DNA of 64,000 bases from a virus. Its lineage: Duplodnaviria; Heunggongvirae; Uroviricota; Caudoviricetes. Below, piece by piece: positions 9,168-25,408 of this stretch. The DNA is taken from positions 30,376 through 94,375 of the IMG/VR virus record IMGVR_UViG_3300044613_002694. One strand, given 5' to 3'. The translations under genes were made by a program, and so were the position numbers. A model generated the notes under the pieces. The model saw only the letters and a list, made by a program, of their open reading frames with translations, was not told the DNA's origin and ran no database searches. Each line of letters begins with the position of its first letter. Positions within the stretch are counted from its first letter, which is position 1.

Positions 9168-9260
9168 TATGTGTGATAACGAATTTGTCCCAGTAATTTT
9201 ATTCATTGTAATAATATATCTTATCTTTAAAAGATCAGCCAAAGATTGGAATAGATTAAA

Positions 9261-9667: not shown

Positions 9668-9954
9668 TGAAAGAATATTCTGTAAAATTTACTGCTTGGG
9701 AAGTTGTACAACCCGATGGTGGTGGCATAGGGGATGAACACCTTGCATACTTTTCATCTAGTTCCGAAGCTAACAAATTCAAAGCACAATACAAAGACCA
9801 TTGGCCTAGACGTGTTAGAAAAGTCGAGATTGACAAACGTTGGGTAGTATGCGATACTGTTGAAGAAATTAACCAAATGGAACTGCTTAATAAAAAAGCA
9901 GCAGCGTTGGCAAAATTAACTGAAGAAGAACGTAAACTATTGGGATTAGAATAA
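9643..9954 (+). CDS. hypothetical protein
   Basis: Track ORF 103 aa. Confidence 0.4.
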   Translation: MVCFEVELMKEYSVKFTAWEVVQPDGGGIGDEHLAYFSSSSEANKFKAQYKDHWPRRVRKVEIDKRWVVCDTVEEINQMELLNKKAAALAKLTEEERKLLGLE

Positions 9955-10178
9955 TGAGAGACGAAATTATTCCTATTTTTGCTATTTCAGCGATTATAGT
10001 AATTGTATGTGTTATGATGTATGACATGGCAGTTAAAGAGCCCAAGTACCAAGAATGGATAGTAAAATGTAGGGAAAATGGTGGTGTTCCATCAAAACAC
10101 CAATTTATGAATGGAAAGTATGTCAATACCGAATACCTATGTATTAAGCCAGAATCAATTATTGAGGTAAAAGAATGA
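9954..10178 (+). CDS. small membrane protein
   Basis: Track ORF; N-terminal hydrophobic helix. Confidence 0.4.
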   Translation: MRDEIIPIFAISAIIVIVCVMMYDMAVKEPKYQEWIVKCRENGGVPSKHQFMNGKYVNTEYLCIKPESIIEVKE

Positions 10179-10660
10179 AAATTTTAATTAGACCATTTAT
10201 TTGGTTTGCAGTATGGTTCCTGATCTTTGAAGAATGGTTATGGGATACCTTAAAATCATATGGTGCAGCACTAGCTAAAGCCCTGCACTTACAACGTGTA
10301 GAATGGTGGCTTGCCAATACTTCACCAACTGTAGCTTTGATCTCATTAGCTATTCCATCATTAATCATTACACCGTTTAACTTGTATGCATTGTTCATGA
10401 TTGCACATGGCATGGTTATTCAAGGCATTATCCTTGAGGTTGTGGCTAAACTAGTTGGTACATTATTGTTATCTAGGATCTTTGCATTAACCAAAACACA
10501 ACTATTGACATTTGGTTGGTTCAATTATTGCTATACTAAAATCATATTGACTTTAGACTGGGCACATGCTAAAATTAAAGCTACTAACACATACAAGGTA
10601 GCAGTTGAATTTAAGCAAACTGTTAAGCAACGAGTTAAACAACTATGGGCAACAATATGA
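10175..10660 (+). CDS. integral membrane protein
   Basis: Track ORF 161 aa; multiple hydrophobic segments. Confidence 0.45.
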   Translation: MKILIRPFIWFAVWFLIFEEWLWDTLKSYGAALAKALHLQRVEWWLANTSPTVALISLAIPSLIITPFNLYALFMIAHGMVIQGIILEVVAKLVGTLLLSRIFALTKTQLLTFGWFNYCYTKIILTLDWAHAKIKATNTYKVAVEFKQTVKQRVKQLWATI

Positions 10661-10896
10661 ACGAGAAAATTAAAGAACTTGCTGAACAGGCTAACATACC
10701 AAAGTATAACTTGGAATATGGTACCGAATTATGCATTGCACCTCATCTTGAAAAATTTGCCGAATCGATTATTAAAGAAACTATCAAAATTATTCAAGCA
10801 ACTGCTGCAGAATCGGTAGACTTGGATAGAACTTTAGTAGAAAATGTATCATGGACCGTAAATGATATCAAGAAAAATTTTGGAATAGAAAAATGA
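10645..10896 (+). CDS. family B small paralog (MNEKIKEL...NFGIEK)
   Basis: Shared N-terminus MNEKIKEL, central KFAExIIKE, C-terminal [HN]FG[IV][EK]; overlapping coupling. Confidence 0.55.
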   Translation: MGNNMNEKIKELAEQANIPKYNLEYGTELCIAPHLEKFAESIIKETIKIIQATAAESVDLDRTLVENVSWTVNDIKKNFGIEK

Positions 10897-11183
10897 ACGA
10901 AAAAATTAAAGAAATCATGTATAAAGTTGATGATATCAACATTTTAAATGAGGTTGGTACTGATGCTGATTTTTTAGCAGATATTGACCCACAGCGCCTA
11001 GAAAAATTTGCTGAGTTGATTATTAAGGAATGCATCGAACAGATAGAAACATGTTTTGCCGGTGGTTCAGTATCAATGGACGATAAACCAATATGGGGAC
11101 CTTCGGTTGATACTTTTAAAGCTTGGAATTGTGGCTTAAAATGCAGCAGAAAACATATCAGCGAAGTGTTTGGAGTAAAATAA
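10893..11183 (+). CDS. family B small paralog
   Basis: MNEKIKEIMYKV...KFAELIIKECIEQ...EVFGVK. Confidence 0.55.
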   Translation: MNEKIKEIMYKVDDINILNEVGTDADFLADIDPQRLEKFAELIIKECIEQIETCFAGGSVSMDDKPIWGPSVDTFKAWNCGLKCSRKHISEVFGVK

Positions 11184-11392
11184 TGAACGAACAACTAAAA
11201 CCCTTTATGGCTGGATTTTCGTTGTCTGGTGAAAGACAACGAAATGGAAAGATCAGACCGCACGTTTATCATGATAAAAATGTATTAGAAATCGATGAAT
11301 GGCCTAAAACTATCGAATTGTTCAACAATACATACGGACTTGAAAACGTAGTTTCGGGGGTTGATGGTTATGAGTGTGCCAATTATTGTTAG
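11183..11392 (+). CDS. hypothetical protein (MNEQLKPF...)
   Basis: Internal start at the taATGAacga junction, similar to the family B junctions. Confidence 0.35.
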   Translation: MNEQLKPFMAGFSLSGERQRNGKIRPHVYHDKNVLEIDEWPKTIELFNNTYGLENVVSGVDGYECANYC

Positions 11393-11402
11393 GAGTTGAA
11401 TA

Positions 11403-11819
11403 ATGAAAGAAATTGTTATAAATGGCCAATCTATTAGAAAGGTATTCTTTTATGATCATGAAGGGTGGCCAATTGAGTTAGAGTTTTCATCACTTGTTAT
11501 TGACGATAATAATTTAATTATAGACCCATACGATGATACAGATGATATAGTTGTTGTCGATGGCGATGAGTTTGTTGACACGATGTGTAATATCGTTGAT
11601 GGCTCTACATCAATTGCTCACGCATATGAATTAACCAGGGAATACTACGATAATGAATATGGTGGTGGAAATTGGGTATCGAGTATGCCATCAGAAGCCA
11701 TATTAGAATCTACTAATAAATGGGCATTAGAAGTGGCTGAAGACACCAAAAGTTTTAAAGGACGCAAAAGGTTTGTATATAAAGACGGTGAGATTTATGA
11801 TTTTTTTAATATAAATTGA
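11403..11819 (+). CDS. hypothetical acidic protein
   Basis: Track ORF 138 aa. Confidence 0.45.
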   Translation: MKEIVINGQSIRKVFFYDHEGWPIELEFSSLVIDDNNLIIDPYDDTDDIVVVDGDEFVDTMCNIVDGSTSIAHAYELTREYYDNEYGGGNWVSSMPSEAILESTNKWALEVAEDTKSFKGRKRFVYKDGEIYDFFNIN

Positions 11820-11873
11820 TTATCGAAAAGTTAACATTTAAGAAATTTTAAAACTACATTTTGGAGTTGAAGA

Positions 11874-12095
11874 ATGATTTTCCATAATAGTAATCCTAAT
11901 TCATTTGTTGTATTTGAAGCAAAACTACTGCGAAAGATTCCTGGTAGTGGAGTAAAAGTGGGTGGCACTATCTATGCATCATTGATGCCAGATAATTATT
12001 ACTACTTGAGTAAGAGTGGTACTGTTGGCAGTCGCATTCTAGGTAGAGTGTTTGAAACCGAAGCAGTCGAAAATGTTGATTTTGTGAGAGTATAA
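11874..12095 (+). CDS. hypothetical protein
   Basis: Track ORF. Confidence 0.4.
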   Translation: MIFHNSNPNSFVVFEAKLLRKIPGSGVKVGGTIYASLMPDNYYYLSKSGTVGSRILGRVFETEAVENVDFVRV

Positions 12096-12322
12096 TGAAC
12101 GAGAAAATTAAAGAATTATTTGAACAAGCTTATGGTGGGGAATGGCCAACTGACATTACAAACATTGCGCCATCAGAATTAGAACGATTTGCCAAGTTGA
12201 TTGTTAATGAATGTGTTCAAATTTGTAGAGATAATATTATGTGCGAGGAAACCGATCTCGATTATAATGATGCCGTAATCGATTGTGCTGTGATGATCGA
12301 ACGACATTTTGGAGTAAAATAA
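12095..12322 (+). CDS. family B small paralog
   Basis: MNEKIKELFEQAY...RFAKLIVNECVQ...RHFGVK. Confidence 0.55.
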   Translation: MNEKIKELFEQAYGGEWPTDITNIAPSELERFAKLIVNECVQICRDNIMCEETDLDYNDAVIDCAVMIERHFGVK

Positions 12323-12516
12323 TGAACGAGAAGATTAAAGAAATTTATAACAGAGCATTTACGGAATACTTCGGTGAAGAATATAAAGATTGCGAGTTAG
12401 ATATTCTCCCCGAGGATCAATATTTTGCAGAATTGCTTATTCGAGAATGTGCCAATTATGCGTTTTCAGATGATCAAGAACGTAATACGATGTTAAGTCA
12501 TTTTGGAGTAGAATAA
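12322..12516 (+). CDS. family B small paralog
   Basis: MNEKIKEIYNRAF...FAELLIRECAN...SHFGVE (internal start of track ORF 12283). Confidence 0.5.
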   Translation: MNEKIKEIYNRAFTEYFGEEYKDCELDILPEDQYFAELLIRECANYAFSDDQERNTMLSHFGVE

Positions 12517-12761
12517 TGCGTAATACCATAGAAGAACTACGAATACAAGCCGGTATTAACAAAACTATTGTACAAGATTTCCAAAATAGCAATACTGAAA
12601 TGATTACATATTCTGCGGATACACAAGCTCTTACTACCTTAATTAATTTGGTGGTAGAAAAAACTTTAGGTCATGTTGAATTTTTAGTTGATATTCAACC
12701 AGACTTTAGTATAATTAGAAAAGAAGTTGCACATGCTTTTGATTTTAATGGAGAAGAATAA
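12516..12761 (+). CDS. hypothetical protein
   Basis: Track ORF. Confidence 0.4.
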   Translation: MRNTIEELRIQAGINKTIVQDFQNSNTEMITYSADTQALTTLINLVVEKTLGHVEFLVDIQPDFSIIRKEVAHAFDFNGEE

Positions 12762-13069
12762 TGAATAATAAACTGGATATATTTTTAGGTATTTTAGGTA
12801 TTGGTATTTTGTTTGGTATGTGGTATATTACTAGTGATGGGTTTTCATATTCTCGATTATCTAATAAAAATATCGAAACTGCTCAATTGTTATATCAATC
12901 AAATGAATTTGACGAAGCATGTCTATATGCTAGAGTTGCAATAACAGAAGCAGCAGAATCTCATAATGTTGATCTTTTAAATACTATTAAATTGGAAAGA
13001 GACCGTATTTGTGGTAAAAAAGATGAACTAGATCAAGCAGCCAAACATAAGGTTGGAATAGAAAAATGA
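12761..13069 (+). CDS. hypothetical membrane-anchored protein
   Basis: N-terminal TM; ends GIEK. Confidence 0.4.
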   Translation: MNNKLDIFLGILGIGILFGMWYITSDGFSYSRLSNKNIETAQLLYQSNEFDEACLYARVAITEAAESHNVDLLNTIKLERDRICGKKDELDQAAKHKVGIEK

Positions 13070-13248
13070 ATAATAGAATTGAAGAATTGAAAAAACAAGC
13101 AATGTATACCGTGTATTCTCATGGTGCATTTGGTGAGCCAGAAAACTACGAACGATTGGATGTAAATAAATTTGCTGAGTTAATTATTAAAGAATGTTCT
13201 GTTATTACTAACAAAGCTGATCTTTTAAAACATTTTGGTATTGAATAA
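13066..13248 (+). CDS. family B small paralog
   Basis: MNNRIEELKKQA...KFAELIIKECSV...KHFGIE. Confidence 0.5.
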   Translation: MNNRIEELKKQAMYTVYSHGAFGEPENYERLDVNKFAELIIKECSVITNKADLLKHFGIE

Positions 13249-13249
13249 T

Positions 13250-13549
13250 ATGAACGAAAAGATTAAACAACTGTATAACCAAGCGATTAATGAAGCATCG
13301 GAAGAGATGCGAGAATGGCATACGCAATGGAATAACAAGCCACCATTGTTTGATTATGAGAAATGTTTATATGGCAAGTTCGGTGAATTGCTTATTAAAG
13401 AAGCAGAATCCAAGTATTTTAGTGAAGGCTATCTTGCCGGTAAAACTGATGGCATTAATGAAGGTATAAAAGATTGTATCAGCCATTTTGAAGAACATGG
13501 TGATATGGTTAGTGCAGGTAATCTACAATCGCATTTTGGTATTGAATAA
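13250..13549 (+). CDS. family B small paralog
   Basis: MNEKIKQLYNQA...QSHFGIE. Confidence 0.5.
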   Translation: MNEKIKQLYNQAINEASEEMREWHTQWNNKPPLFDYEKCLYGKFGELLIKEAESKYFSEGYLAGKTDGINEGIKDCISHFEEHGDMVSAGNLQSHFGIE

Positions 13550-13779
13550 TGAACTATAGTATTGCGAAAGACTTGAATATTATTGCGCGAGCAAATGCTG
13601 GTGCTATAATAGCCGACGCTCATAAAAATGGTCAATCGATTAATGTCGAAGCTGTTAAGATACATGAATTTGCCGAAATTATTATATTGGAATGTATCGA
13701 TGTAATTTTAAGTCATAGTGATCCGTTTGCTGAAAATTCATACATTAAAGTAATCAAAGAACATTTTGGTATCGAATAA
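13549..13779 (+). CDS. family B small paralog
   Basis: ...EFAEIIILECIDV...EHFGIE. Confidence 0.5.
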   Translation: MNYSIAKDLNIIARANAGAIIADAHKNGQSINVEAVKIHEFAEIIILECIDVILSHSDPFAENSYIKVIKEHFGIE

Positions 13780-14000
13780 TGAGCTTGATTACACCACACG
13801 AATATCATATAATGCAAGAGAAGAACAAACAGTTAGTTAATGTGATTGAGTATATTCAATTAATAGCAAAAAACGAACAAAAGAATTTAACGCATGATAT
13901 TGGTATCAGTCTTTACTATAAGAAAGCATTGCACCCATTATTGGTCGAACAAGCCGGATTACAAGCTAGGATCAAACGATATGAGGCAATAGGAAAATAA
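13779..14000 (+). CDS. hypothetical protein
   Basis: Track ORF. Confidence 0.4.
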   Translation: MSLITPHEYHIMQEKNKQLVNVIEYIQLIAKNEQKNLTHDIGISLYYKKALHPLLVEQAGLQARIKRYEAIGK

Positions 14001-14092
14001 CATGAACTCATCAAGAATAAGACACGCATTTCTATATCAGAATAAACGATTATTAGAACATTTCGGGTCTAATGCTATTTCAACATTGATAT

Positions 14093-14332
14093 ATGAAAAG
14101 CGTAAAGACTGGTGCTCATAACATGAACCAGTTTAAAAACTTATGGAATAAATTTAACAATTGGATAGATCCAAAAGTTGGAGTTCATATCTTTTGGATT
14201 GTTCCTGTATTTTGGACATTATTAGTGCTTGACTATTTCAAGGATAACCTTTATAATGCTTTTAAACGTGTTAAGAACTTGTTTCAAAAACGTGATATCA
14301 AAAACCTTAAAAAACTTTCAGGAATTAAATGA
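14093..14332 (+). CDS. small membrane protein
   Basis: Track ORF; one TM. Confidence 0.4.
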   Translation: MKSVKTGAHNMNQFKNLWNKFNNWIDPKVGVHIFWIVPVFWTLLVLDYFKDNLYNAFKRVKNLFQKRDIKNLKKLSGIK

Positions 14333-14523
14333 TGAACGATACCGTACAATATGAAATCACTGTTAAAATCCAAGTATCAATTGGTAAGGCTGAACATCAA
14401 GCCCAACACGATGAAGCTATGTTGATTGCTCAATACTATGCAGATATGGCTATTAAATATAAATCTATCGGAGCAGATAAGATACTTGAAGTTAAAGCGG
14501 AACCAATCTTGATCAATACTTGA
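14329..14523 (+). CDS. hypothetical protein
   Basis: Track ORF. Confidence 0.4.
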   Translation: MMNDTVQYEITVKIQVSIGKAEHQAQHDEAMLIAQYYADMAIKYKSIGADKILEVKAEPILINT

Positions 14524-14526
14524 AAA

Positions 14527-14853
14527 ATGAACGATTCAACTGAAAGTATACACAAAACAATGCTAGAATATTGCGAATCAAGTCGCAATGTATTTGCTAA
14601 AAGACTTACAGATGCCGAAACACTGGACTTTCAAGGCGGTGTAATGGCTGGACCAACAAAAATAAACGAGGCAACCATGATGGCTAAAAAAATTGACACA
14701 CATTTAGAAGAAAAACTTTTCAAACATCTCAATAAACTGAGAAAGAAAATCGATTGGATCGGTGATAAAGAACTTCGTCAAAAACTAGACGAACATGCTA
14801 CCGCAATTCATAACATTATTAAGGAAAATACTGAAAATGAAAATTCAAACTAA
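14527..14853 (+). CDS. hypothetical protein
   Basis: Track ORF. Confidence 0.4.
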   Translation: MNDSTESIHKTMLEYCESSRNVFAKRLTDAETLDFQGGVMAGPTKINEATMMAKKIDTHLEEKLFKHLNKLRKKIDWIGDKELRQKLDEHATAIHNIIKENTENENSN

Positions 14854-14870
14854 ATCTAACAGGGTTTGGC

Positions 14871-15251
14871 ATGGCATTAAGTGATTGCAACCATTGTTGG
14901 GAAACACCTTGTTCTTGTGGTTATGAATACAAATCATGGCCATTAGACAAAAAGTTGAAACTAGCAGCCGCTATTTTAGACGTAACACCAGATAAATTAA
15001 AGAATACAATATTACCGGCAGTTAAATCAGCTGATGGGGTTTCTGGATCATTATGTCGTGGAATTGGTGGCACCTATTTCTTTCGAGTATATCATGACCA
15101 TGAAAAGTTTACTGATTATGAATTACTCCATAGTGATTTAAATATCACAATCGAAGACTCGGATGCATTCTTCTATTCAACTAATGTTTCTGCAGTATTA
15201 GATCATTCACCAGAAACACTTCTTAACAACACACAGAGAGACATGACATGA
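14871..15251 (+). CDS. hypothetical protein (N-terminal CxxC..C.C)
   Basis: Track ORF. Confidence 0.4.
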   Translation: MALSDCNHCWETPCSCGYEYKSWPLDKKLKLAAAILDVTPDKLKNTILPAVKSADGVSGSLCRGIGGTYFFRVYHDHEKFTDYELLHSDLNITIEDSDAFFYSTNVSAVLDHSPETLLNNTQRDMT

Positions 15252-15538
15252 AAGACTATTCTAATTATTGCGGTACTGTTACTACTGAAACTATCGAAGA
15301 AGCTGTTGCTTATTGTAATCAAAAATTTCCCATGCAGGAAGTTCGGTTAGCTGATGACGAAGATTTTGGACAGATATTAGTACAGTCTGCTGAAAACCTT
15401 TCAGGCGTTACAATAACAGTATTTGATACAATGTTACATAAACAGGTAACCATTTGTGTGGATAGAGATTTGTATTACAAATTTTTAGCAAGATCAAAAG
15501 AAGTATTGAAAAAATCAAGAAAAAAGGAAATGGTGTAA
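15248..15538 (+). CDS. hypothetical protein
   Basis: Track ORF; preceded by an ACACAGAGAGACATGACATG leader. Confidence 0.4.
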   Translation: MKDYSNYCGTVTTETIEEAVAYCNQKFPMQEVRLADDEDFGQILVQSAENLSGVTITVFDTMLHKQVTICVDRDLYYKFLARSKEVLKKSRKKEMV

Positions 15539-15617
15539 TTATGTTTTGGCTTTCATTTTTATTTGCAACAATTATTGTAGCAACAGTTAGTTATCAAATT
15601 GAAAAAAGAGTAAAAAA

Positions 15618-16949
15618 ATGACATATATTCAAGAATTAATTGCCTATATCAATTCAATGACATCAGGTAACCAAATGGTTGCTGCTGCAATAAGTGCATG
15701 GATGTTGGCAGTTTTATCGTACATGCTTAAGAATATTCCTCGGACTATTATTAACTTTTTGTATAAGCAGGGTACAACCACATTAGAATTAGATAATGCT
15801 GGTGCTAATTTTCATTTATATTTTTCGTTCCTGGCATGGTCAGGTAAACATATGAATGAACATACCTCAAGAACAATGTTTGTACAGTCTCATAACTGGG
15901 ATGCCACATCATTAGCAATCGGTCCTAGTTACGGTAATCATTTTTTCTTTTTCAAAAAACGGTTATATTGGATGACCATGACTAAAATTGAAAATACAGG
16001 CGAAACGATTAGAAAACAAATCAAGATCACCACTTATGGACGTAGCCACAATGTATTTCATGCTTTGATTGATGAATTCAAACCAGTAAACAAAACAGCC
16101 GATACAATTTACATTCATAACTGGGATGGCAAAGGTTGGGAAAATCGTGTTGAACTTCACAAACGCCCATTATCATCAGTTGTACTGAATAAAACAGTTA
16201 AAAATAACGTAACCGCTGCAATAGAAAAATTTTATGCTGATAAACAATGGTATACTGAAAATGGTATCCCATATAAACTGGGTATCCTGTTACATGGTAA
16301 CCCAGGCTGTGGTAAAACTAGTCTGGTAAAAGCATTGGCTAGTCATTACAATAGATCTATCTACGTTATTAATATCAATGCAATGTCTGATAGAACACTT
16401 GAATCAGCTATTTCCAAATCAGAAAAAGGCTCATTTATTTTGATCGAAGATTTTGATTCATCGAAAGCAGTTACCAAAAGACAACGGGTTCAGGAATCTG
16501 TTGATAAAGCAAATGGTGAAGAAAAATCTGATCCAGGTAAACAAGTGATCATCGATAACCCAATGGGTGAGTATGAGATGTTAAGTTTGACTGGTGTATT
16601 AAATGCAATTGATGGTGTTTCTTCTTTACACGAAAATATTATCATCATGACTACCAATGATGTTGACAAAATCGATCCAGCTGTGTTAAGATCTGGTCGA
16701 TGTGATGTCAGATTGGAATTACCATACTTAACTGATCCTGAAATTCGTGAATACATCAGTATTAAGTTCCCAGATGCAAATTTAGATGATTACACATTTA
16801 AAAATATCGCGGGTTGTGATTTACAAGCAACATTGATAGAACACAAAGATAGCAGTGATGGATTTTTATCATCACTAGAGGTAAAAGGAATTGCGAAGAA
16901 AAAGTTTCATTTCATGGAAATTGAAACAAAAATTCTTGACGTAGCTTAA
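15618..16949 (+). CDS. BCS1-like membrane-anchored AAA+ ATPase
   Basis: N-terminal TM (AAISAWMLAVLSYML); Walker A GILLHGNPGCGKTS; Walker B ILIEDFD; TTNDVDKIDPAVLRSGRCD sensor/arginine-finger region as in BCS1. Confidence 0.7.
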   Translation: MTYIQELIAYINSMTSGNQMVAAAISAWMLAVLSYMLKNIPRTIINFLYKQGTTTLELDNAGANFHLYFSFLAWSGKHMNEHTSRTMFVQSHNWDATSLAIGPSYGNHFFFFKKRLYWMTMTKIENTGETIRKQIKITTYGRSHNVFHALIDEFKPVNKTADTIYIHNWDGKGWENRVELHKRPLSSVVLNKTVKNNVTAAIEKFYADKQWYTENGIPYKLGILLHGNPGCGKTSLVKALASHYNRSIYVININAMSDRTLESAISKSEKGSFILIEDFDSSKAVTKRQRVQESVDKANGEEKSDPGKQVIIDNPMGEYEMLSLTGVLNAIDGVSSLHENIIIMTTNDVDKIDPAVLRSGRCDVRLELPYLTDPEIREYISIKFPDANLDDYTFKNIAGCDLQATLIEHKDSSDGFLSSLEVKGIAKKKFHFMEIETKILDVA

Positions 16950-16963
16950 AAAGCTGATACAAT
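16936..16963 (+). promoter_or_regulatory. sigma70-like promoter (TTGACG-16-TACAAT)
   Basis: Read directly. Confidence 0.4.
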
Positions 16964-16995
16964 ATACATTTTACACAACAACATAAGAGAACTTT

Positions 16996-18063
16996 ATGAC
17001 TTATTATTTGAAATCTGGCAACACATACAAACCAAGTGCAGAAGCATCATTGGATCTTCACTACACACTGCCAGTTGGCAATTACATTATCAAAAAAGAT
17101 CCTTTCGAAAATCTGTATTTCGAAAAAATTGACAATTTCGAATTTTCTGGAAAACGCTATGGTGACAACCAGAAGAATACCGATCGGATTATCGATACCT
17201 TTATGGATCGTGAAGTTTCAACTGGCGTAATGTTGACTGGTGAAAAAGGTTCTGGTAAATCATTGTTAGCAAAATGCTTATCAATGAAAGCAGCAGAATT
17301 AAACATCCCAACTTTAATCATTAACGATCCATGGTGTGGTGACAAATTCAACCGTTTGATCCAAGAAATTCAACAACCTTGTATCGTGTTATTTGACGAG
17401 TTTGAAAAGGTATATGATCGTGATAGCCAGGAATCAATCCTGACATTACTCGACGGCGTGTTCCCAACCAAAAAATTGTTTGTATTAACTTGTAATGACA
17501 AATGGCGCGTTGACCAACATATGCGTAATCGTCCAGGTCGTATTTACTACATGTTGGACTTCAAAGGTTTGAGCATCGAGTTCATTGAAGAATATTGCAA
17601 TGATAACTTGAAAAACAAATCACATATCGATAACATTTGCAAAATTTCATCATTATTTGCACAGTTCAACTTCGATATGCTGAAAGCGCTGGTTGAAGAA
17701 ATGAATCGTTATGATGAATCACCACAAGAAGCATTGGCTATGTTGAATGCAAAACCTGAGTTCGACGAAGGTAACAAATTCAATGTTCAATTACAAATCA
17801 ATGGTGTTACTGTTGATCCAGATGATTACTACAACGGTGACAAATGGAACGGCAATCCATTACATGGCAGATTGCGAGTTGAATATCGTACATACGAAGA
17901 TGATCCAGAAGACGGTGATTGGGTATATGCGAATTTCACACAAACTGATTTGAAAAACGTGGATGCACTTAATGGCAAGTTCGTCTTCATGAATGAAAAA
18001 AATGAAATCATGACCTTGACCAAAGTGAAAGAAACACAATTCAACTTTCACGACGCATTTTAA
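16996..18063 (+). CDS. second AAA+ family ATPase
   Basis: Walker A GEKGSGKS; Walker B CIVLFDEFE; RNRPGR arginine-finger-like segment. Confidence 0.6.
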   Translation: MTYYLKSGNTYKPSAEASLDLHYTLPVGNYIIKKDPFENLYFEKIDNFEFSGKRYGDNQKNTDRIIDTFMDREVSTGVMLTGEKGSGKSLLAKCLSMKAAELNIPTLIINDPWCGDKFNRLIQEIQQPCIVLFDEFEKVYDRDSQESILTLLDGVFPTKKLFVLTCNDKWRVDQHMRNRPGRIYYMLDFKGLSIEFIEEYCNDNLKNKSHIDNICKISSLFAQFNFDMLKALVEEMNRYDESPQEALAMLNAKPEFDEGNKFNVQLQINGVTVDPDDYYNGDKWNGNPLHGRLRVEYRTYEDDPEDGDWVYANFTQTDLKNVDALNGKFVFMNEKNEIMTLTKVKETQFNFHDAF

Positions 18064-18072
18064 ATAACACAG

Positions 18073-18097
18073 TGGCGGGATTATCCCGCCACTTTTC
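18073..18097 (+). terminator. rho-independent terminator
   Basis: GTGGCGGGAttaTCCCGCCAC followed by TTTT. Confidence 0.6.
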
Positions 18098-18109
18098 ATT
18101 GAGAAGATT

Positions 18110-18727
18110 ATGAAACAATTATTAGTATTATCATTATTGCTGATGTCTTTTACCGCTACTGCAGCAGGTTTGGGTTCAAATGCTGCATCAAGTGCCGGAT
18201 TTGATAAATTGACAGAAGCACAGAAAGCCGATGTAATCAAAACCATCGCACAACAAGCTGAATCAAACAAACAAGCAGAATCAAACAAAAATGCGAGTTC
18301 TGAAAGTATTACTGCTAGTATCCCAGATCCAGAAGGTATCGAACGCTGGACTAAACTCGGCACTAGTATTGCATCTGGGTTAGGTGCAGCTGCTAAAGAA
18401 CTTAATGTTGGCGTGAATGAGTTTGCCAAATCACCAGTCGGTCAGTTAACCACTGTTATGATTATCTGGAAAATCATGGGTTCACAAATTGTTCATGTGA
18501 TTGGTGGATTTTTTGTGTGGGTTGTCGGGTTAAGTTCTATTAAAATAGCGGCTAATCGACTATCATCGGGTGACATCCAATACAGCAAAACCGAGAAAAA
18601 CATTTTTGGTAATTATGTGATTGTCAAACGTGAACAAAACCAATTAGATGGTGAGACAGTTGGTGGATTGTTATGTGCAGCAGGATTAGTAATTTTCTCG
18701 GGAATTGTTGTAATGTTTAGTGGTTAG
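18110..18727 (+). CDS. secreted/membrane protein (signal peptide plus C-terminal TM segments)
   Basis: MKQLLVLSLLLMSFTATAAG signal; QAESNKQAESNK repeat; C-terminal hydrophobic helices. Confidence 0.5.
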   Translation: MKQLLVLSLLLMSFTATAAGLGSNAASSAGFDKLTEAQKADVIKTIAQQAESNKQAESNKNASSESITASIPDPEGIERWTKLGTSIASGLGAAAKELNVGVNEFAKSPVGQLTTVMIIWKIMGSQIVHVIGGFFVWVVGLSSIKIAANRLSSGDIQYSKTEKNIFGNYVIVKREQNQLDGETVGGLLCAAGLVIFSGIVVMFSG

Positions 18728-18729
18728 TA

Positions 18730-18757
18730 TTGACAATCATACAACCTATGATATGAT
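18730..18757 (+). promoter_or_regulatory. sigma70-like promoter (TTGACA-16-TATGAT)
   Basis: Read directly. Confidence 0.4.
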
Positions 18758-18786
18758 ACATTTTTTAACATTTAGAGGAATGATTT

Positions 18787-19251
18787 ATGAAATTAATTTT
18801 ACTATTAACGATGGCTACTATGTTGATTGCTTGCTCAGATTCTGAACAAGACCGGTTGCGTAAACAGCAACAGCAATTAGCACAACAACAGCAATCATTG
18901 AATTTGCAACAACAGCAATTGGCACAACAACAAATGGCTCAACAGCAGTATCAACAACCTGCGTATGATCATCAATATCAACAACCACAATACCAACAAC
19001 CTATTGTTGTACAACAACCTGCACAAGCACCCGTTGTTGTACAACAGCCATCAAATGGTGGTTCTCATGTAACTGATATGTTAGTCGGTGGACTTGTGGG
19101 ACATGCTCTAGGTAATGCCATGAGCAATAATAACCGTTCATCATCTGGGTATTACGATAATCGACCACGTAATGTAACCAACGTGACTAAAAACATTACT
19201 ATTAATCGATCAGCCACATCAAGACCAAGTTCAGCAAGGTTACGAAAATGA
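18787..19251 (+). CDS. Q-rich lipoprotein
   Basis: Lipobox LIAC-S; long QQQ low-complexity region; GxxxG-like LVGGLVGHALG segment. Confidence 0.5.
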   Translation: MKLILLLTMATMLIACSDSEQDRLRKQQQQLAQQQQSLNLQQQQLAQQQMAQQQYQQPAYDHQYQQPQYQQPIVVQQPAQAPVVVQQPSNGGSHVTDMLVGGLVGHALGNAMSNNNRSSSGYYDNRPRNVTNVTKNITINRSATSRPSSARLRK

Positions 19252-19395
19252 TTTGGTTTGTTATCGGTAGGATTGTTATATTTGCGGCAATTGGGGTAGT
19301 ACTGGCACAGTTAGGTGTAAATTTTGGTGGAACACTACTAGTACTCCTACTATCTGCAATTGCATGTGTCATTAGTTATTTAGAAGGAGTGGAAA

Positions 19396-19566
19396 GTGCA
19401 AAACGAAACTGAAACAGTTACATTAAACTTACCTGATGAAATGTTATTCAAGTTGATGGTAATGGCACATGAAGAAGATGTTACTTTCAATCAATTTGTT
19501 AATAATATCTTGAAAGAAGAATTGGCAAAAGATGAACCATTTGCATTTCTTAATAAATCTTCTTGA
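19396..19566 (+). CDS. putative ribbon-helix-helix (CopG/Arc-like) DNA-binding protein
   Basis: GTG start after GAAGGAG; TVTLNLPDEMLFKLMVMAHEEDVTFNQFVNNILKEEL matches the RHH pattern. Confidence 0.35.
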   Translation: MQNETETVTLNLPDEMLFKLMVMAHEEDVTFNQFVNNILKEELAKDEPFAFLNKSS

Positions 19567-19590
19567 CAACCAATACAACCCTGATATAAT
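19563..19590 (+). promoter_or_regulatory. sigma70-like promoter (TTGACA-16-TATAAT)
   Basis: Read directly. Confidence 0.5.
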
Positions 19591-19623
19591 ACAATTTTTA
19601 AACACACAATAGAGAGTACTGAA

Positions 19624-19917
19624 ATGAGACCAAGCGTTAAATTCAATAAAAAAGGCCAAGCATTAGTTAAAGTCGCTTACAAACATGGTGAAGTAACTTG
19701 GGCATTAACTGGTATTAGCAATACCGGCAAGTTTGACTGGATCTTGTTTGAAAAACCTGATAACTATAATCCATATCGCGTAACCAATGATCACAAATAC
19801 ATTTTGTCTGGTAAAAAATTACGGGCACAATTGATTTCAACTGCCGCTGCGAGTCATAGCTTCATTGCATTAGATGCATTAAAAAAAGCATTAAAAACAC
19901 AACGTGCCGGAGTCTAA
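19624..19917 (+). CDS. hypothetical protein
   Basis: Track ORF. Confidence 0.45.
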   Translation: MRPSVKFNKKGQALVKVAYKHGEVTWALTGISNTGKFDWILFEKPDNYNPYRVTNDHKYILSGKKLRAQLISTAAASHSFIALDALKKALKTQRAGV

Positions 19918-19921
19918 TACC

Positions 19922-20383
19922 ATGGAATTAGCATTATTGATTTACGGTGTCAGTTTATTACCGCAGCTTTCTGCTTCACTTGGATGGCTTCTTTTTGTAT
20001 TAGTTATACCTATGATTATCTCTGGTGTAACATGGCTAGTTAACACTGATGATAGATACCTATCCGAGTCTGAAAAAGAACGTGCAAAAACTACTGTGGA
20101 TTCAGCACGAACATGGTTTAAACGATCTGTTATATGGTTTTTCATTGCGGGGGCTATGAACACTTTACTACCATCAGAAAAGACTGCATATATGATGGTT
20201 GGCGGATATGTATCGCAAACAATTGTTCAAAGCGATGCAATGGGTAGAGTTGTCAGTGAATCTAGTAAAATTTCTGGTAAAATCTTGGACATTATCAACA
20301 ATAAACTCGATGGCTATGTTGAAGAAACCGTGAAAGGTGCTGAAAAAGCAATTACTAATGACAACACTGCCACCAAGCCATAA
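19922..20383 (+). CDS. membrane protein
   Basis: Internal start MELALLIYG; two or more TM segments. Confidence 0.45.
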   Translation: MELALLIYGVSLLPQLSASLGWLLFVLVIPMIISGVTWLVNTDDRYLSESEKERAKTTVDSARTWFKRSVIWFFIAGAMNTLLPSEKTAYMMVGGYVSQTIVQSDAMGRVVSESSKISGKILDIINNKLDGYVEETVKGAEKAITNDNTATKP

Positions 20384-20393
20384 TTATTAATCA

Positions 20394-20428
20394 CATCATC
20401 CACTATTATAGTGGATGATGACTTTTTT
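20394..20428 (+). terminator. rho-independent terminator
   Basis: CATCATCCACtattataGTGGATGATG perfect hairpin followed by TTTTTT. Confidence 0.65.
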
Positions 20429-20439
20429 AAGGTATCACA

Positions 20440-20691
20440 ATGCTAACATTGTTATTTTTATTTTATGTGGTTCCTCTAACTATTTGTATAACATGCATAT
20501 TAGTAGCAACCAGAAATGAATCATTTGCAAAAGCTATAGACATGAAAGATAATAGCGATTTATCATTTGGATTGGGTATGGCTATTGCACCTTTTATTAA
20601 TATTGCTTTTTCCGGAGTTCTTCTGATAATCTTAATTGAACCGATTCTTAAGAAATCTGGTTTTTACAAACACCGTTATTATAAGGATTAA
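20440..20691 (+). CDS. small membrane protein
   Basis: Track ORF; hydrophobic. Confidence 0.4.
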   Translation: MLTLLFLFYVVPLTICITCILVATRNESFAKAIDMKDNSDLSFGLGMAIAPFINIAFSGVLLIILIEPILKKSGFYKHRYYKD

Positions 20692-20694
20692 CCA

Positions 20695-20910
20695 ATGTGT
20701 TTTTCAGAAATTGTATCACTAGGTTTTTACGCAATTCCTATAATTATTAATTTTACATTTTTTTATTTTATAAGTCGTAATGAACGATTAAAACGAAGGA
20801 TGGGTGATAATCTGGATTGTTCTATGTTCTTTTCATGTATACCAGTGGCGAACATTTGTGTTAGTATACCGTTAATATTTAATTATTTAAATTACAGGTT
20901 ATCTCGATAG
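20695..20910 (+). CDS. small membrane protein
   Basis: Track ORF; hydrophobic. Confidence 0.4.
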   Translation: MCFSEIVSLGFYAIPIIINFTFFYFISRNERLKRRMGDNLDCSMFFSCIPVANICVSIPLIFNYLNYRLSR

Positions 20911-21122
20911 TGAGTTACTCAGTAAACTTACGATTTAAAACGTATCGGCATTGGAATACTTTCAAAGAATGGTGTGAATCTACCTATCATCAACATACGA
21001 ATTATGCTATCTATCTTCAACATATGCATGAAGATTTGATTGAATCGGTTAATATTAATAATTCACCAGAAATAACATTTAAATCAGAAGCACACTACCA
21101 TTGGTTTTTATTACAACAATAG
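20910..21122 (+). CDS. family A small paralog (...FKSEAHYHWFLLQQ)
   Basis: Track ORF; motif. Confidence 0.55.
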   Translation: MSYSVNLRFKTYRHWNTFKEWCESTYHQHTNYAIYLQHMHEDLIESVNINNSPEITFKSEAHYHWFLLQQ

Positions 21123-21131
21123 CGATATAAT

Positions 21132-21491
21132 ATGAAAAAAGAAATTCTAGCTAAAAGCATTGAAGTATATGATCTAATTGAATCTGGTAATACCATAGAA
21201 CATGTTATTTCAAAATTATCTGATTTACAAAATGACTATTATATGTTCACTCGTCTAGCGTTTGAAAAAGAATATCCTGGATATGATGGTGGTTATTGTC
21301 TCAGTTTAAATTGTTATCGCATGGAAACAGATCAAGAAGAACAAGAACGTGAAGAAAGAGAACGTGCAATTATTGAAAAGTCCGAACGAAAAAAACTTGC
21401 ACTATTAGAAAAAAAGTTTGCTAAAAAAGCTGCTGAAGATGCATATGACCGAGCTGAACTTACACGTTTAAAAGCAAAATACGGCGATTAA
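21132..21491 (+). CDS. hypothetical protein (charged coiled-coil C-terminus)
   Basis: Track ORF. Confidence 0.45.
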   Translation: MKKEILAKSIEVYDLIESGNTIEHVISKLSDLQNDYYMFTRLAFEKEYPGYDGGYCLSLNCYRMETDQEEQEREERERAIIEKSERKKLALLEKKFAKKAAEDAYDRAELTRLKAKYGD

Positions 21492-21506
21492 CAATAACTA
21501 AAAAAG

Positions 21507-21788
21507 GTGAATAAAATGTTTATGAGAATAGTAAAATTTAATGATGGTACTTTTGGTATTCGTAAATTGACTTTTTGTGGGTTTGCATTTTGTGATTTTA
21601 GATCTAATTTTGCAGGGCAGTATTGGTGGACTTATGGTTTACCAGGGTCAAAATACTTATATGATGGATCATGTAGAACTACTGAAGAAACTGCTAAAGA
21701 AGTTTTTTGTAGATTATCTAAATTATCTAAACCTAAACCTAACGTGAAAGATAATGGTACAGCAATCAATTATACTTGCCAGGATTAA
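21507..21788 (+). CDS. hypothetical protein
   Basis: Track ORF. Confidence 0.4.
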   Translation: MNKMFMRIVKFNDGTFGIRKLTFCGFAFCDFRSNFAGQYWWTYGLPGSKYLYDGSCRTTEETAKEVFCRLSKLSKPKPNVKDNGTAINYTCQD

Positions 21789-21791
21789 CTA

Positions 21792-22112
21792 ATGAAACAA
21801 TTGTATATAAAGCTTTCAATGTTACTACCGATGAAATGGCAGAAAACATTGCGTAGAATTGAATACGCTATTAAAGATTACGAACGTGCAAATTATGTAA
21901 TATATCGTAAAGATGATGAATATCTGTACAGTAAAGGTAATGGATTTGTTAAACCTGTAATAACCAACTACACTTCATTTGAAGTATACGATAGCCTTGA
22001 ACAAGTCGATGTTGATCAAGCAATGTTAAAACAACAAGGGTATGAAACTGGTGTTTATGCGATAAGTTGTGTTCAAACCAATCAAGCTCACTTTATGATG
22101 TTTTTAGGTTGA
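21792..22112 (+). CDS. hypothetical protein
   Basis: Track ORF. Confidence 0.4.
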   Translation: MKQLYIKLSMLLPMKWQKTLRRIEYAIKDYERANYVIYRKDDEYLYSKGNGFVKPVITNYTSFEVYDSLEQVDVDQAMLKQQGYETGVYAISCVQTNQAHFMMFLG

Positions 22113-22136
22113 CAAATCGGTTTAAACTGATAAGAT
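22109..22136 (+). promoter_or_regulatory. sigma70-like promoter (TTGACA-16-TAAGAT)
   Basis: Read directly; followed by an AACACAACACAGCGAGACA leader. Confidence 0.45.
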
Positions 22137-22171
22137 ACACCCATCTTAAACACAACACAGCGAGACACCTC

Positions 22172-22687
22172 ATGATTAAATATAGAGTACGGGATTACCC
22201 TAAATGGTATTTAAATGACAACGTACATCGAGAAGATGGCCCTGAATGTGCAGAGGGCTATAAAGAATGGTGGTTAAATGGCAAGGCATACACAGAACAA
22301 GAATTTATCCAAATAACCCAAGGTAAAGAGTTATCAGTAGCTGAAATTGAACAATTACTTGGTTATAAAATTAAGGTGGTAAAAATGATCGAATACACAG
22401 TACAAGTTTACGAAGATAGAACTGCATGGTTTTTAAATGGCAAATTACATCGAGAAGATGGACCAGCTGTTGAATGGTCAAATGGTGAAAAACAATGGTA
22501 TTTAAATGGTCAAATTCATCGAGAAGATGGTCCAGCTGTTGAATATCCCAGTGGTAATAAAGCATGGTATTTAAATGGCAAGAAATTTACAGAACAAGAA
22601 TTTAACCAAATGACCCAAAGCAAAGAGCTATCAGTAGCTGATATTGAACAATTACTTGGTTATAAAGTTAAAATTGTTGACAAATAA
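22172..22687 (+). CDS. MORN-variant repeat protein (internally duplicated; paralog of 8361-8732)
   Basis: WYLNGKLHREDGPAVEW repeats; C-terminus LSVAEIEQLLGYKVKIVDK identical to 8361-8732. Confidence 0.55.
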   Translation: MIKYRVRDYPKWYLNDNVHREDGPECAEGYKEWWLNGKAYTEQEFIQITQGKELSVAEIEQLLGYKIKVVKMIEYTVQVYEDRTAWFLNGKLHREDGPAVEWSNGEKQWYLNGQIHREDGPAVEYPSGNKAWYLNGKKFTEQEFNQMTQSKELSVADIEQLLGYKVKIVDK

Positions 22688-22704
22688 CAATAAACTGTTA
22701 TAAT
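22676..22704 (+). promoter_or_regulatory. sigma70-like promoter (TTGACA-17-TATAAT gcac)
   Basis: Read directly. Confidence 0.5.
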
Positions 22705-22752
22705 GCACTAATAAAGATAGACTTTATTAAATTTAACTATAGGAGTTATAGT

Positions 22753-23775
22753 ATGAACAAAAAATATGACAATGCAGTAGTAATCATGCGTGGGCAACCA
22801 CTTCACAACGCTCATTTAGAACTAATCAATAGAGCAGCAGAATTGGCAAAAAATGTCATTATCTTGCTTGGCTCATCAAAACAACCAAGAACATTTAAGA
22901 ATCCATTTACATTCAGTGAACGTTGTGGAATGATCTTACGTTCAATTAAAATCGAACCAGCCGTTCAGGTTTATATCGAACCATTAGTGGATATTCCTTA
23001 TAATGATCAGGTTTGGGTTTTAAACGTTCAGGATATTGTTGCCGAATGTACGCATGGTAATAGTATTTGCTTACTCGGTCATAATAAAGACAGTAGCACT
23101 GGTTATTTAAAAATGTTTCCACAATGGTCATTTGAAGATTTTGACAATGTTGCAAATCAATTAAATGCTACTGATATCCGCGATCTTTACTTTAAGCGTC
23201 CATATAATCAGGATTATATCAAAGGTGTAGTTCCAGATAATGTATTAGAGTTTTTAAATGAATTCCATGATACACCAGATTACAATGATATTCTCGAAGA
23301 AAAAGAATTTATTGAAAAATATAAACAGCAATTTGCTGGATTGCAATATGCACCAGTGTTCGTGACGGTTGATTGTTTGATCATCCAATCTGGGCATGTT
23401 CTCATGATTAAACGAAGATCGAATCCTGGTAAAAATTTAATGGCCCTTCCTGGTGGCTACCTTAATGCCGGGACTGATCGTTCACTATTAGATGCTGCTA
23501 TACGTGAACTCAAAGAAGAAACCGGTATCAAAGTTCCTGAACCTGTATTACGCGGTAGCATTATTCAAAGTAAGGTATTTGATGCAATAGATCGAGATCC
23601 ACGTGGGCGTGTGATCACCCATGCCTTCCATATTGAGCTACCAGCTGGACCGTTGCCGAAAGTAAAAGGAATGGATGATGCGCTAAAAGCAAAATGGGTG
23701 CCGTTGTCTGAAATTACCAGTGAAAACTGTTATAGTGATCATGCAGAAATCATTAAAGTATTAGTTGGTATTTAA
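22753..23775 (+). CDS. natV: bifunctional NMN adenylyltransferase / Nudix hydrolase (NadM-Nudix, phage NatV-like)
   Basis: N-terminal nucleotidyltransferase HxGH-type motif (GQPLHNAHL); C-terminal Nudix box-like REL(K)EETGI. Confidence 0.7.
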   Translation: MNKKYDNAVVIMRGQPLHNAHLELINRAAELAKNVIILLGSSKQPRTFKNPFTFSERCGMILRSIKIEPAVQVYIEPLVDIPYNDQVWVLNVQDIVAECTHGNSICLLGHNKDSSTGYLKMFPQWSFEDFDNVANQLNATDIRDLYFKRPYNQDYIKGVVPDNVLEFLNEFHDTPDYNDILEEKEFIEKYKQQFAGLQYAPVFVTVDCLIIQSGHVLMIKRRSNPGKNLMALPGGYLNAGTDRSLLDAAIRELKEETGIKVPEPVLRGSIIQSKVFDAIDRDPRGRVITHAFHIELPAGPLPKVKGMDDALKAKWVPLSEITSENCYSDHAEIIKVLVGI

Positions 23776-24534
23776 TTAACAAAATTTCTTGCAATTTTCA
23801 CCGTGCCATCTTTTATATAAACCTATGCCCTTGCCTGTTTTACCACAGTAAGGGCATTCCCAAGGTTGCTGAAAATGATGGGTACCGTCCTTTACTTTTT
23901 TTCTACTCGGATTATTATCTCCTTGGAAATTGTGCGTTCCTGCTTTTATACGTCTATGAGTAATTTCACGAGAAATCACACCACCAATAAAATGGTGTAA
24001 TCCATCTTGTACTCGTTTATTAGCTGCAATTCGTGCAATTTCTCCACCTATAAAATGATGTGTACCATTTTCAACACGCTCTTTTTGTTGTTTTCGCTGA
24101 AAATCACCGCCAACCCAGTTATGAGTGCCATTCTTAATTCTTTGTTGATTAGATCTTCTACTGATTTCACCACCGAGAAAGTGGTGTTTTCCTTCAGCTA
24201 CTAATTTACGAGCAATATTTTTAGCATCTTCTGATGTATTGCCATCACTTCCTTTTTTATAATTCATGCAATCTGGGTTTTCAAAATGAATTCCTATATA
24301 ATATTCTTCAAGTCTGCAAAGTTCTTCAATTGAAGATGCTTCTGCTATAATTTCCCTAGATAACACCGATTTATCTTTTATACTTTTAACCCAGTTTCCG
24401 CTACCTAAATAGCCATCATTTATATTTTGTGTTGTATGGCGGCCAATATAAAATTTTCCGTTAACGTGTGATGTTTTATATACTAAATACATTGCTGATG
24501 TCCTCCCAGACGTTAGAGTAGTTAGGAACTCCAA
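23776..24534 (-). CDS. GIY-YIG homing endonuclease (Seg-like) with repeated DNA-binding modules
   Basis: N-terminal YLVYK...GKFYIGRHTT...YLGSG GIY-YIG core; repeated GTHHF(I/Q)GG modules. Confidence 0.65.
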   Translation of the reverse strand: MEFLTTLTSGRTSAMYLVYKTSHVNGKFYIGRHTTQNINDGYLGSGNWVKSIKDKSVLSREIIAEASSIEELCRLEEYYIGIHFENPDCMNYKKGSDGNTSEDAKNIARKLVAEGKHHFLGGEISRRSNQQRIKNGTHNWVGGDFQRKQQKERVENGTHHFIGGEIARIAANKRVQDGLHHFIGGVISREITHRRIKAGTHNFQGDNNPSRKKVKDGTHHFQQPWECPYCGKTGKGIGLYKRWHGENCKKFC

Positions 24535-24632
24535 TTCCGTGAACTACATTCTTATTTATCCATTTCTTCTTGACATTATCATATTCATCTGCTATTATAC
24601 TATTTTAATTCAACATTTTTTAGGAAACTAAT

Positions 24633-24857
24633 ATGCTACGAGCGGATGCTGAAAGAGTATTAACCGCCAATGGTTATAAAATTGAAACATTTCATAATAA
24701 ACGCCATGATAGATGGACTGCTTGTTTAATTTCACCAACTGGGAAATACGATTTACAAACACCTACTGCATCTGGTATTTCAGAACATGCAGCAGTTGTA
24801 AATCTATTCTGTTATTGGACTGGATATACTAAAATCAGAGAGCATTATGCGAATTAA
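24633..24857 (+). CDS. hypothetical protein
   Basis: Track ORF. Confidence 0.4.
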   Translation: MLRADAERVLTANGYKIETFHNKRHDRWTACLISPTGKYDLQTPTASGISEHAAVVNLFCYWTGYTKIREHYAN

Positions 24858-25143
24858 ATTTAAACACACAGTGGTTAATGATAATGGCGATACTATTACT
24901 GAAGGATTTGGGCGTGTTATAGAAATTTCTGACTACGATACTTCAACTATTAGAGTAATGGAGCTAATTCGAAAACAAGCTAAATTGCAGAATTGGGCTG
25001 GAGTTGCTGGTATTAAAGAATTCTGCAAAACTGAATATAATGCTACTATTAATTTTAGCACTAAAACAAACCATTGGACTAGTATAACATTTAAAGATCA
25101 AGAACATTTTAAACAATTTATTGAACAGGTGAACCATGCTTAA
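24847..25143 (+). CDS. family A-like small protein (divergent, ...ITFKDQEHFKQFIEQ)
   Basis: Partial motif. Confidence 0.35.
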   Translation: MRIKFKHTVVNDNGDTITEGFGRVIEISDYDTSTIRVMELIRKQAKLQNWAGVAGIKEFCKTEYNATINFSTKTNHWTSITFKDQEHFKQFIEQVNHA

Positions 25144-25408
25144 AGAAATTGGGTTTGTTCCTAAATCATTTGAACGAAAATATCGTGCAGTTATTACTGA
25201 TGGTGGGAATTTATCAGATATGAAACAATTCTGTAATCGATTTGATAGTGTTGTATACCATCGAACAAGACAAAATTATCATAATAGATTCGCACAACCA
25301 TTTAAGGAAATTAAAAGTTTTGATGTGTTTTATTTTAAAGAAGCCAAATACCAAGAATGGTTTATATTGGCATTTAGCGAATATATTATTCAATGGGAGT
25401 GGGATTAA
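25136..25408 (+). CDS. family A small paralog (...KYQEWFILAFSEYI)
   Basis: Motif. Confidence 0.5.
   Translation: MLKEIGFVPKSFERKYRAVITDGGNLSDMKQFCNRFDSVVYHRTRQNYHNRFAQPFKEIKSFDVFYFKEAKYQEWFILAFSEYIIQWEWD

Follow-up and report, generated by a model that had tools for sequence, protein, structure and literature searches.

The four-gene locus

We analysed a 64,000-nucleotide stretch of caudoviricete DNA (IMG/VR record IMGVR_UViG_3300044613_002694, positions 30,376 to 94,375; hereafter, the window), with a focus on four consecutive genes at positions 15618-19251: a Bcs1-family AAA+ ATPase (gene 1), a second AAA+ ATPase (gene 2), a predicted signal-peptide protein (gene 3), and a predicted lipoprotein (gene 4). 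An earlier note, made from the sequence alone, had read them as a tandem ATPase module within an envelope-associated system. The four open reading frames (ORFs) lie exactly where that note had placed them. The window is AT-rich (~34 per cent GC), and its phage nature is evident from virion-protein PHROG families, NAD-salvage genes (NadR-like and NAMPT), a TnpB gene, and a GIY-YIG homing endonuclease gene. A megablast search of the window against 50,697 phage records returned no match at roughly ≥85 per cent identity, and the window therefore has no annotated close relative among these records. The metagenomic contigs that are near-identical to it are L004 and L006 (one contig), L062, L063, and L066.

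The features of the locus are listed below (coordinates in the window, strand, description, and basis of the assignment; aa, amino acids). Hydrophobic and signal-like segments of all four proteins were scored by Kyte-Doolittle hydropathy alone, and promoters and terminators were called by consensus scans only.

15618-16949, + strand: gene 1, Bcs1-family AAA+ ATPase, phrog_7485, 443 aa (Pfam, PHROG, PDB, AlphaFold2/Foldseek)
15672-15728, + strand: predicted N-terminal membrane anchor of gene 1, residues 19-37 (Kyte-Doolittle hydropathy only)
15729-16181, + strand: Bcs1-specific middle domain of gene 1, residues 38-188 (Pfam PF08740, alignment with yeast Bcs1)
16284-16727, + strand: AAA domain of gene 1, residues 223-370 (Pfam PF00004, profile positions 1-131)
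16936-16963, + strand: weak sigma-70-like promoter match before gene 2 (TTGACG-16-TACAAT, 10/12, TG)
16996-18063, + strand: gene 2, soluble classical-clade AAA+ ATPase, phrog_2376, 355 aa (Pfam, PHROG, AlphaFold2)
18071-18093, + strand: intrinsic-terminator-like hairpin after gene 2 (10-bp stem with 7 GC pairs, 3-nt loop, T-run)
18110-18727, + strand: gene 3, predicted signal-peptide protein, phrog_19575, 205 aa, variable cassette (hydropathy; phrog_19575 at E = 3e-17)
18730-18757, + strand: sigma-70-like promoter match before the lipoprotein gene (TTGACA-16-TATGAT, 11/12, TG)
18787-19251, + strand: gene 4, Q-rich predicted lipoprotein, phrog_13808, 154 aa (lipobox; phrog_13808 at E = 2e-11)
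19563-19590, + strand: perfect sigma-70-like match at the start of the next gene group (TTGACA-16-TATAAT, 12/12, TG)

Gene 1 belongs to the Bcs1 family

Sequence and predicted structure together identify gene 1 as a true Bcs1-family AAA+ protein, as the earlier note had proposed. The Pfam domain BCS1_N (PF08740) reaches 49.7 bits (cut-off, 28.1) and is covered at profile positions 9-182 of 182, the AAA domain (PF00004) scores 67.6 bits, and the protein matches the phrog_7485 profile over its full length (E = 2e-119). The first matches in a phmmer search of the PDB are yeast Bcs1 (6sh3; E = 3e-36) and mouse Bcs1 (E = 1e-35), with the middle domain and the start of the AAA domain aligning to residues 76-330 of the yeast protein. 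When an AlphaFold2 model built on 37 homologs (mean predicted local distance difference test [pLDDT] score of 84.9) was compared with the PDB by Foldseek, Bcs1 accounted for all top 17 matches; the best of them, 8tp1_A (E = 5e-30), aligns over the full length with template-modelling (TM) scores of 0.71 (TMq) and 0.74 (TMt) across 449 columns. The three motifs that had suggested the assignment are all located in gene 1 (GNPGCGKTS at residue 227, ILIEDFD at 274, and TTNDVDKIDPAVLRSGRCD at 345), and residues G227, G230, K233, E277, D278, N347, R358, and R361 are invariant in the family of 37 sequences.

The N-terminal transmembrane helix claimed for gene 1 is likewise predicted. Hydropathy detects a single hydrophobic segment, at residues 19-37 (Kyte-Doolittle value of 1.67 over 19 residues), and its position is kept in 36 homologs, including phiKZ gp286, Munch, and phiTE. 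The segment is followed by K38, R42, and K50, and these basic residues would fit an N-out/C-in orientation, as in Bcs1.

Mitochondrial Bcs1 (BCS1L; PDB 6sh3, 6uko, 8tp1) is an AAA heptamer that translocates the folded Rieske Fe-S protein and is, to our knowledge, the only AAA protein that carries a folded protein across a membrane. Gene 1 shares with it a predicted N-terminal membrane helix, the PF08740 domain, and an AAA domain in which the Walker A, Walker B, sensor-1, and arginine residues are intact, but it is phage-encoded, is only 22-25 per cent identical, and contains an additional disordered stretch inserted at residues 304-318. After Bcs1 itself, the structure closest to gene 1 is that of the soluble AAA protein YjoB of Bacillus subtilis (PDB 7w42), which also ranks in the top three for gene 2 in the PDB; its TM score is much weaker (~0.5), and it has no close sequence relation to either gene. 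Neither ATPase aligns best with a clamp loader, DnaA, or a terminase: the PHROG clamp-loader families give E-values of 2.7e-9 for gene 1 and 1.9e-6 for gene 2, and the PDB and fold matches of both proteins fall in the classical AAA clade.

The Bcs1-like family is present in 173 of the 50,697 phage records and is concentrated in large and jumbo phages. This count agrees with the earlier description of phage Bcs1-like ATPases as uncommon, but they are not new, as Bcs1 orthologs have already been described in all three jumbo-phage groups (Iyer et al. 2021, PMC7824862). The orthologs phiKZ gp286, Salmonella phage Munch gp468, and Pectobacterium phage phiTE gp021 show 33-39 per cent identity over ~80-95 per cent of the length and have the same domains and N-terminal hydrophobic helix. 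As in the window, each is a stand-alone gene with variable neighbors; they differ from gene 1 of the window in that only the latter adjoins a phrog_2376 ATPase.

Bcs1-like genes of 24-27 per cent identity also occur, near full length, in four isolate genomes of Azospirillum and Magnetospirillum-group alphaproteobacteria (Rhodospirillales; L165, L168, L172, and L180), where the matches extend from query residues ~18-67 to ~363-420. The other full-length bacterial matches are mostly on contigs of metagenome bins and could be phage DNA. The genes in the alphaproteobacterial isolates may have a bearing on the origin of mitochondrial Bcs1.

Membership in a defense system was considered and rejected, PADLOC having given only partial IetA and TRIP13 matches around Walker A. 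The IetAS system was set aside as well: the IetA matches span ~70 residues at Walker A, the NCBIfam match reaches 37.7 bits where 510 are required, and there is no IetS protease partner.

Gene 2 is a distinct soluble ATPase

The second, distinct AAA+ ATPase of the earlier note is borne out by a match of gene 2 to the phrog_2376 profile, annotated as 'ATPase' (E = 7e-90; residues 4-337 on profile positions 3-321 of 363). Judged by its sequence, gene 2 is a soluble AAA+ protein, distinct from gene 1, of a very large, highly conserved, and uncharacterized phage family. It has 4,556 relatives at E ≤ 1e-10, and the mean column identity among 28 diverse members is 63 per cent. Pfam recognizes a generic AAA domain only, with Walker A (GEKGSGKS, residue 82), Walker B (VLFDEFE, 131), sensor-1 (LTCND, 164), and RNRPGR (177) motifs, and the hydropathy scan found no hydrophobic segment.

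In the AlphaFold2 model of gene 2 (pLDDT of 79.3), a classical AAA core is flanked by two beta domains, a small one at the N-terminus and another at the C-terminus. The fold matches of this model in the PDB (among them Bcs1, YjoB, FtsH, and proteasome ATPases) span the AAA core only, and the C-terminal beta domain had no match in that search. The full-length fold recurs solely in uncharacterized phage ATPases and is common to the phrog_2376 orphans of phi92 (the gene 190 product), Pumpernickel (gp160), and Acinetobacter phage ME3. With 56 per cent identity to the protein of Microbacterium phage Pumpernickel, gene 2 is an ordinary member of phrog_2376, and its homologs elsewhere lie among nucleotide-metabolism, tRNA, or NAD-salvage genes. 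A 189-aa ORF on the reverse strand (17860-18429, - strand) overlaps the terminator together with the adjoining ends of genes 2 and 3, and is very likely a spurious antisense ORF.

Genes 3 and 4 encode predicted envelope proteins

Hydropathy supports the signal peptide and C-terminal transmembrane segments noted earlier for gene 3, with a signal-like segment at residues 4-22 and two C-terminal hydrophobic segments at ~122-148 and 184-202. Its QAESNK motif is present, but the repeats amount to two copies only (residues 49-60). Gene 4 retains its designation as a Q-rich lipoprotein (lipobox LIAC with Cys16; 31 Q in a region of 66 residues), but not the long polyglutamine tract attributed to it, as the longest Q run is four. 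A tblastn search with gene 4 found no match in the phage records, probably through low-complexity filtering. Both proteins have the appearance, in sequence, of ordinary Sec-type or lipoprotein-pathway envelope proteins, and they form part of a string of small membrane proteins that hydropathy places at 19248-20910. Superinfection exclusion is a possible function of their products.

Gene 3 is 66 per cent identical between the window and L004, where the flanking genes are 93-99 per cent identical, and 99.5 per cent identical in L066; on these alignments, it diverges much faster than the genes surrounding it.

We also considered genes 3 and 4 as a two-component spanin or lysis cassette and rejected that assignment, as gene 3 has two extra C-terminal hydrophobic segments. 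A two-component spanin would pair a type-II inner-membrane protein having a single N-terminal membrane segment with an outer-membrane lipoprotein, both encoded in a lysis cassette. Gene 4 does have a lipobox, but its homolog occurs without gene 3 in L068, and a domain scan of the flanking ORFs found no endolysin or holin domains. Downstream of gene 4, a 56-aa ORF (19396-19566) has a borderline match to the CopG-antitoxin/ribbon-helix-helix family (27.9 bits against a cut-off of 28); L068 has a conserved copy of this ORF downstream of gene 2, and Microbacterium phage Pumpernickel has a ribbon-helix-helix gene after its gene-2 homolog, beyond two tRNA genes.

The four genes do not travel together

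The four genes come separately in related and in distant phages, and a four-gene module is therefore unsupported. Among 54 viral contigs that carry a relative of gene 2 (50-65 per cent identity), none has a Bcs1-like gene within 8 kb of it, and 14 have a NadR-like gene. When the ORFs lying up to 5 kb from the Bcs1-like gene were clustered across 20 loci (that of the window and 19 others, including phiKZ, Munch, and phiTE), no common neighbor family emerged; the sole recurrent 'families' were antisense ORFs within the Bcs1-like gene itself. It is on this co-occurrence check that the proposed tandem module and envelope system fail. Consistently, no second AAA gene adjoins the Bcs1-like gene in Munch, phiTE, phiKZ, or the relatives at 59 and 43 per cent identity. 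Gene 2 has no conserved neighbor from the four-gene set either, its only recurrent synteny being with NadR, and the ten commonest host genera of the two ATPase families in the phage records do not overlap.

Closer relatives show the set being taken apart. In L005, whose Bcs1-like gene is 96 per cent identical to gene 1, the DNA match to the window stops at 16912 and the translated match at 16949, around the Bcs1-like stop codon, with similarity picking up again at 28726; everything from gene 2 to NadR is absent from that position. In L066, a SegE-like GIY-YIG/NUMOD3 homing endonuclease gene (1393-2274, - strand) lies between the homologs of genes 1 and 2, and gene 2 is 88.7 per cent identical to that of the window, against 98.6-100 per cent for the genes on both sides. 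This dip may be a co-conversion tract beside the homing endonuclease. The window has a GIY-YIG/NUMOD3 gene of its own at 50640-51611 (- strand). L068-L070 keep gene 2 (73 per cent identity) and a lipoprotein homolog (58 per cent), but no Bcs1-like gene is found in the 6 kb read upstream of gene 2, and the membrane protein is absent. The NadR gene of L068 is 99 per cent identical to that of the window, and the contrast with gene 2 of the same contig is, in these alignments, one of sharp recombinational mosaicism.

The predicted transcription signals also subdivide the set. The hairpin at 18071-18093 corresponds to the strong terminator noted earlier between genes 2 and 3; it is palindromic and hence scores on both strands. 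Eight sigma-70-like promoter matches of at least 11/12 occur at 8001-28000, all on the coding (+) strand, and three of them are perfect and have an extended -10 TG (8299-8326, 19563-19590, and 22677-22704). ORFs start just downstream of at least the latter two, at 19624 and 22753. The total number of promoter matches in this interval is no greater than in shuffled sequence, and the strand bias is suggestive only. The promoter-like sites fit host-sigma-70 early promoters, and genes 3, 4, and those that follow look like separate predicted transcription units.

From these comparisons, the adjacency of the four genes is probably a chance neighborhood of accessory genes and not a conserved system. 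Several observations weigh against this view. The AAA core of gene 2 is structurally nearest to the AAA domains of Bcs1 and YjoB. Genes 1 and 2 lie on the same strand, 46 nt apart, and because there is no terminator between them, they are probably co-transcribed in the window phage. The four-gene order is kept in the window, L004, and L062, and also, with the insertion, in L066. Finally, a loose association of the Bcs1-like gene, the membrane protein, and the lipoprotein is possible in light of L061, although few independent genomes bear on it.

Adjacency on one strand, the conserved order, and the predicted envelope location of three of the four products (genes 1, 3, and 4) are also what would be expected if the four genes formed one envelope system serving in superinfection exclusion, translocation, or the remodelling of membranes. 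However, all contigs with this order are near-identical to the window and amount to approximately one observation, and all more distant comparisons split the set. A terminator and promoter-like sites lie inside it, a homing endonuclease gene separates the ATPases in L066, and gene 2, which lacks a membrane segment, is found in thousands of phages without a Bcs1-like neighbor in the contigs examined. We regard a single envelope system as exceedingly improbable and as largely refuted by the co-occurrence data, which contradict it.

A narrower proposal is that gene 1 exports or inserts the membrane protein and/or the lipoprotein as its cargo, with gene 2 as an unrelated insertion. In L061, whose Bcs1-like gene is 59 per cent identical to gene 1, homologs of the membrane protein (47 per cent) and the lipoprotein (48 per cent) do lie ~1 kb downstream of it, with no gene 2, and L068 lacks the membrane protein along with a Bcs1-like gene in the part read. 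Yet the ordinary Sec-type and lipoprotein signals on both candidates mean that no folded-protein translocase is required, and L068 has the lipoprotein with no Bcs1-like gene nearby. In the L005/L151 contig, the membrane-protein homolog is ~14 kb away from the Bcs1-like gene in a different block; in L151, it sits exactly at the junction of rearranged blocks, with window position 28672 on one side and 5732 on the other. Moreover, among Vibrio phage records, the membrane-protein family is present in 38 and the Bcs1-like family in 6, and the distant Bcs1-like loci have neither envelope protein as a neighbor. A cargo relationship is therefore very doubtful.

What the genes may do

The explanation we favor, and consider likely, is that the region is a run of accessory genes that are independent of one another, in a mosaic stretch of a large phage genome that is probably transcribed early, with no dedicated multi-gene system. 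By analogy with Bcs1, which we use as the mechanistic model, gene 1 is probably a membrane-anchored AAA ring acting alone. Its N-terminal helix would anchor the protein in the host inner membrane, so that both the Bcs1-specific domain and the ATPase ring face the cytoplasm, and the ring would drive the remodelling, insertion, or translocation of a folded client at the membrane at the expense of ATP. Gene 2 would be a soluble AAA+ remodeller of the classical clade, from a separate and slowly evolving family, acting on a different client, and genes 3 and 4 would belong to the string of small envelope proteins that are gained, lost, and moved as single-gene cassettes. What the analysis shows is the family membership and domain architecture of the proteins, the absence of conserved linkage among their genes, and the terminator-like and promoter-like sites; we infer membrane topology, assembly into a ring, activity as a translocase or chaperone, and early timing. 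The neighborhoods offered no substrate candidate for gene 1, as no neighbor family is conserved in the 20 Bcs1-like loci.

The Bcs1-like protein could instead be a virion-assembly factor. Membrane-proximal translocation of folded virion proteins has been proposed for the jumbo-phage orthologs (Iyer et al. 2021, PMC7824862), and the concentration of the family in large and jumbo phages is in line with this hypothesis. On the other hand, gene 1 lies among small genes preceded by sigma-70-like matches and not in a structural module, and no structural-gene neighbor is conserved in the 20 loci. In addition, the data on phiKZ gp286 are ribosome co-fractionation and ribosomal-stalk cross-links, not contacts with virion proteins (PMC10449902). 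We find this role unlikely.

Those same data raise the question of a ribosome-associated factor for translation or co-translational targeting, by extrapolation from phiKZ gp286. PHIKZ286 has the same BCS1_N and AAA architecture and a hydrophobic N-terminus. The interaction proteomics of phiKZ-infected cells, beside which our literature search found no experimental paper on a phage Bcs1 homolog, placed gp286 with 70S ribosomes (predicted co-elution) and cross-linked it to rplL, rplK, and rplJ, which the paper terms the L1 stalk (PMC10449902). However, this is one high-throughput data set, the homolog is only ~37 per cent identical to gene 1, and a large AAA ring could co-elute with ribosomes through size alone. 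The ribosomal stalk is abundant and flexible, and cross-links to it are hence not very specific. Such a role for gene 1 appears quite unlikely.

Other features of the window

The window holds several further features outside the four-gene locus. A tandem run at 12095-13779 comprises at least five small paralogous ORFs of 60-104 aa, with N-termini such as MNEKIKELF, MNEKIKEIY, MNNRIEELK, and MNEKIKQLY and a common C-terminal HFG[IV][EK]; it looks like a locally amplified gene family. The 206-aa ORF at 22067-22687 is built of W(Y/F)LNGK.HREDGPA.E repeats and has no Pfam match; related repeat DNA is found at ~8300-8750, and the array of this type is expanded in L151.

A TnpB/IS605 OrfB-type gene (37831-39012, - strand; 393 aa) has HTH_OrfB_IS605, OrfB_IS605, and Cas12f1-like TNB domains. 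A TnpB gene of the same length and with the same domains is located at 3204-4385 of L068, 1.6 kb upstream of the gene-2 homolog (L068-L070), and this distribution suggests a mobile element moving among related phages. The NAD-salvage pair consists of a NadR-like adenylyltransferase with a Nudix domain (22753-23775) and NAMPT (30641-32104).

Implications for phage Bcs1-like proteins

Each of the two ATPases is a new and divergent member of a family that PHROG already lists. The window adds one more divergent member to the phage Bcs1 family, for which the translocase idea is already in the literature. The wider interest lies in gene 1 alone and in the question whether phages equip the host with a folded-protein translocase or membrane chaperone of their own. 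That a phage Bcs1 ring in the bacterial inner membrane exports a folded protein of phage or host from the cytoplasm independently of Sec and Tat, and may in this phage lineage thereby serve a nearby envelope protein, is an unlikely but not negligible prospect. If true, it would give bacteria a virus-encoded pathway for folded proteins that is equivalent to mitochondrial Bcs1.

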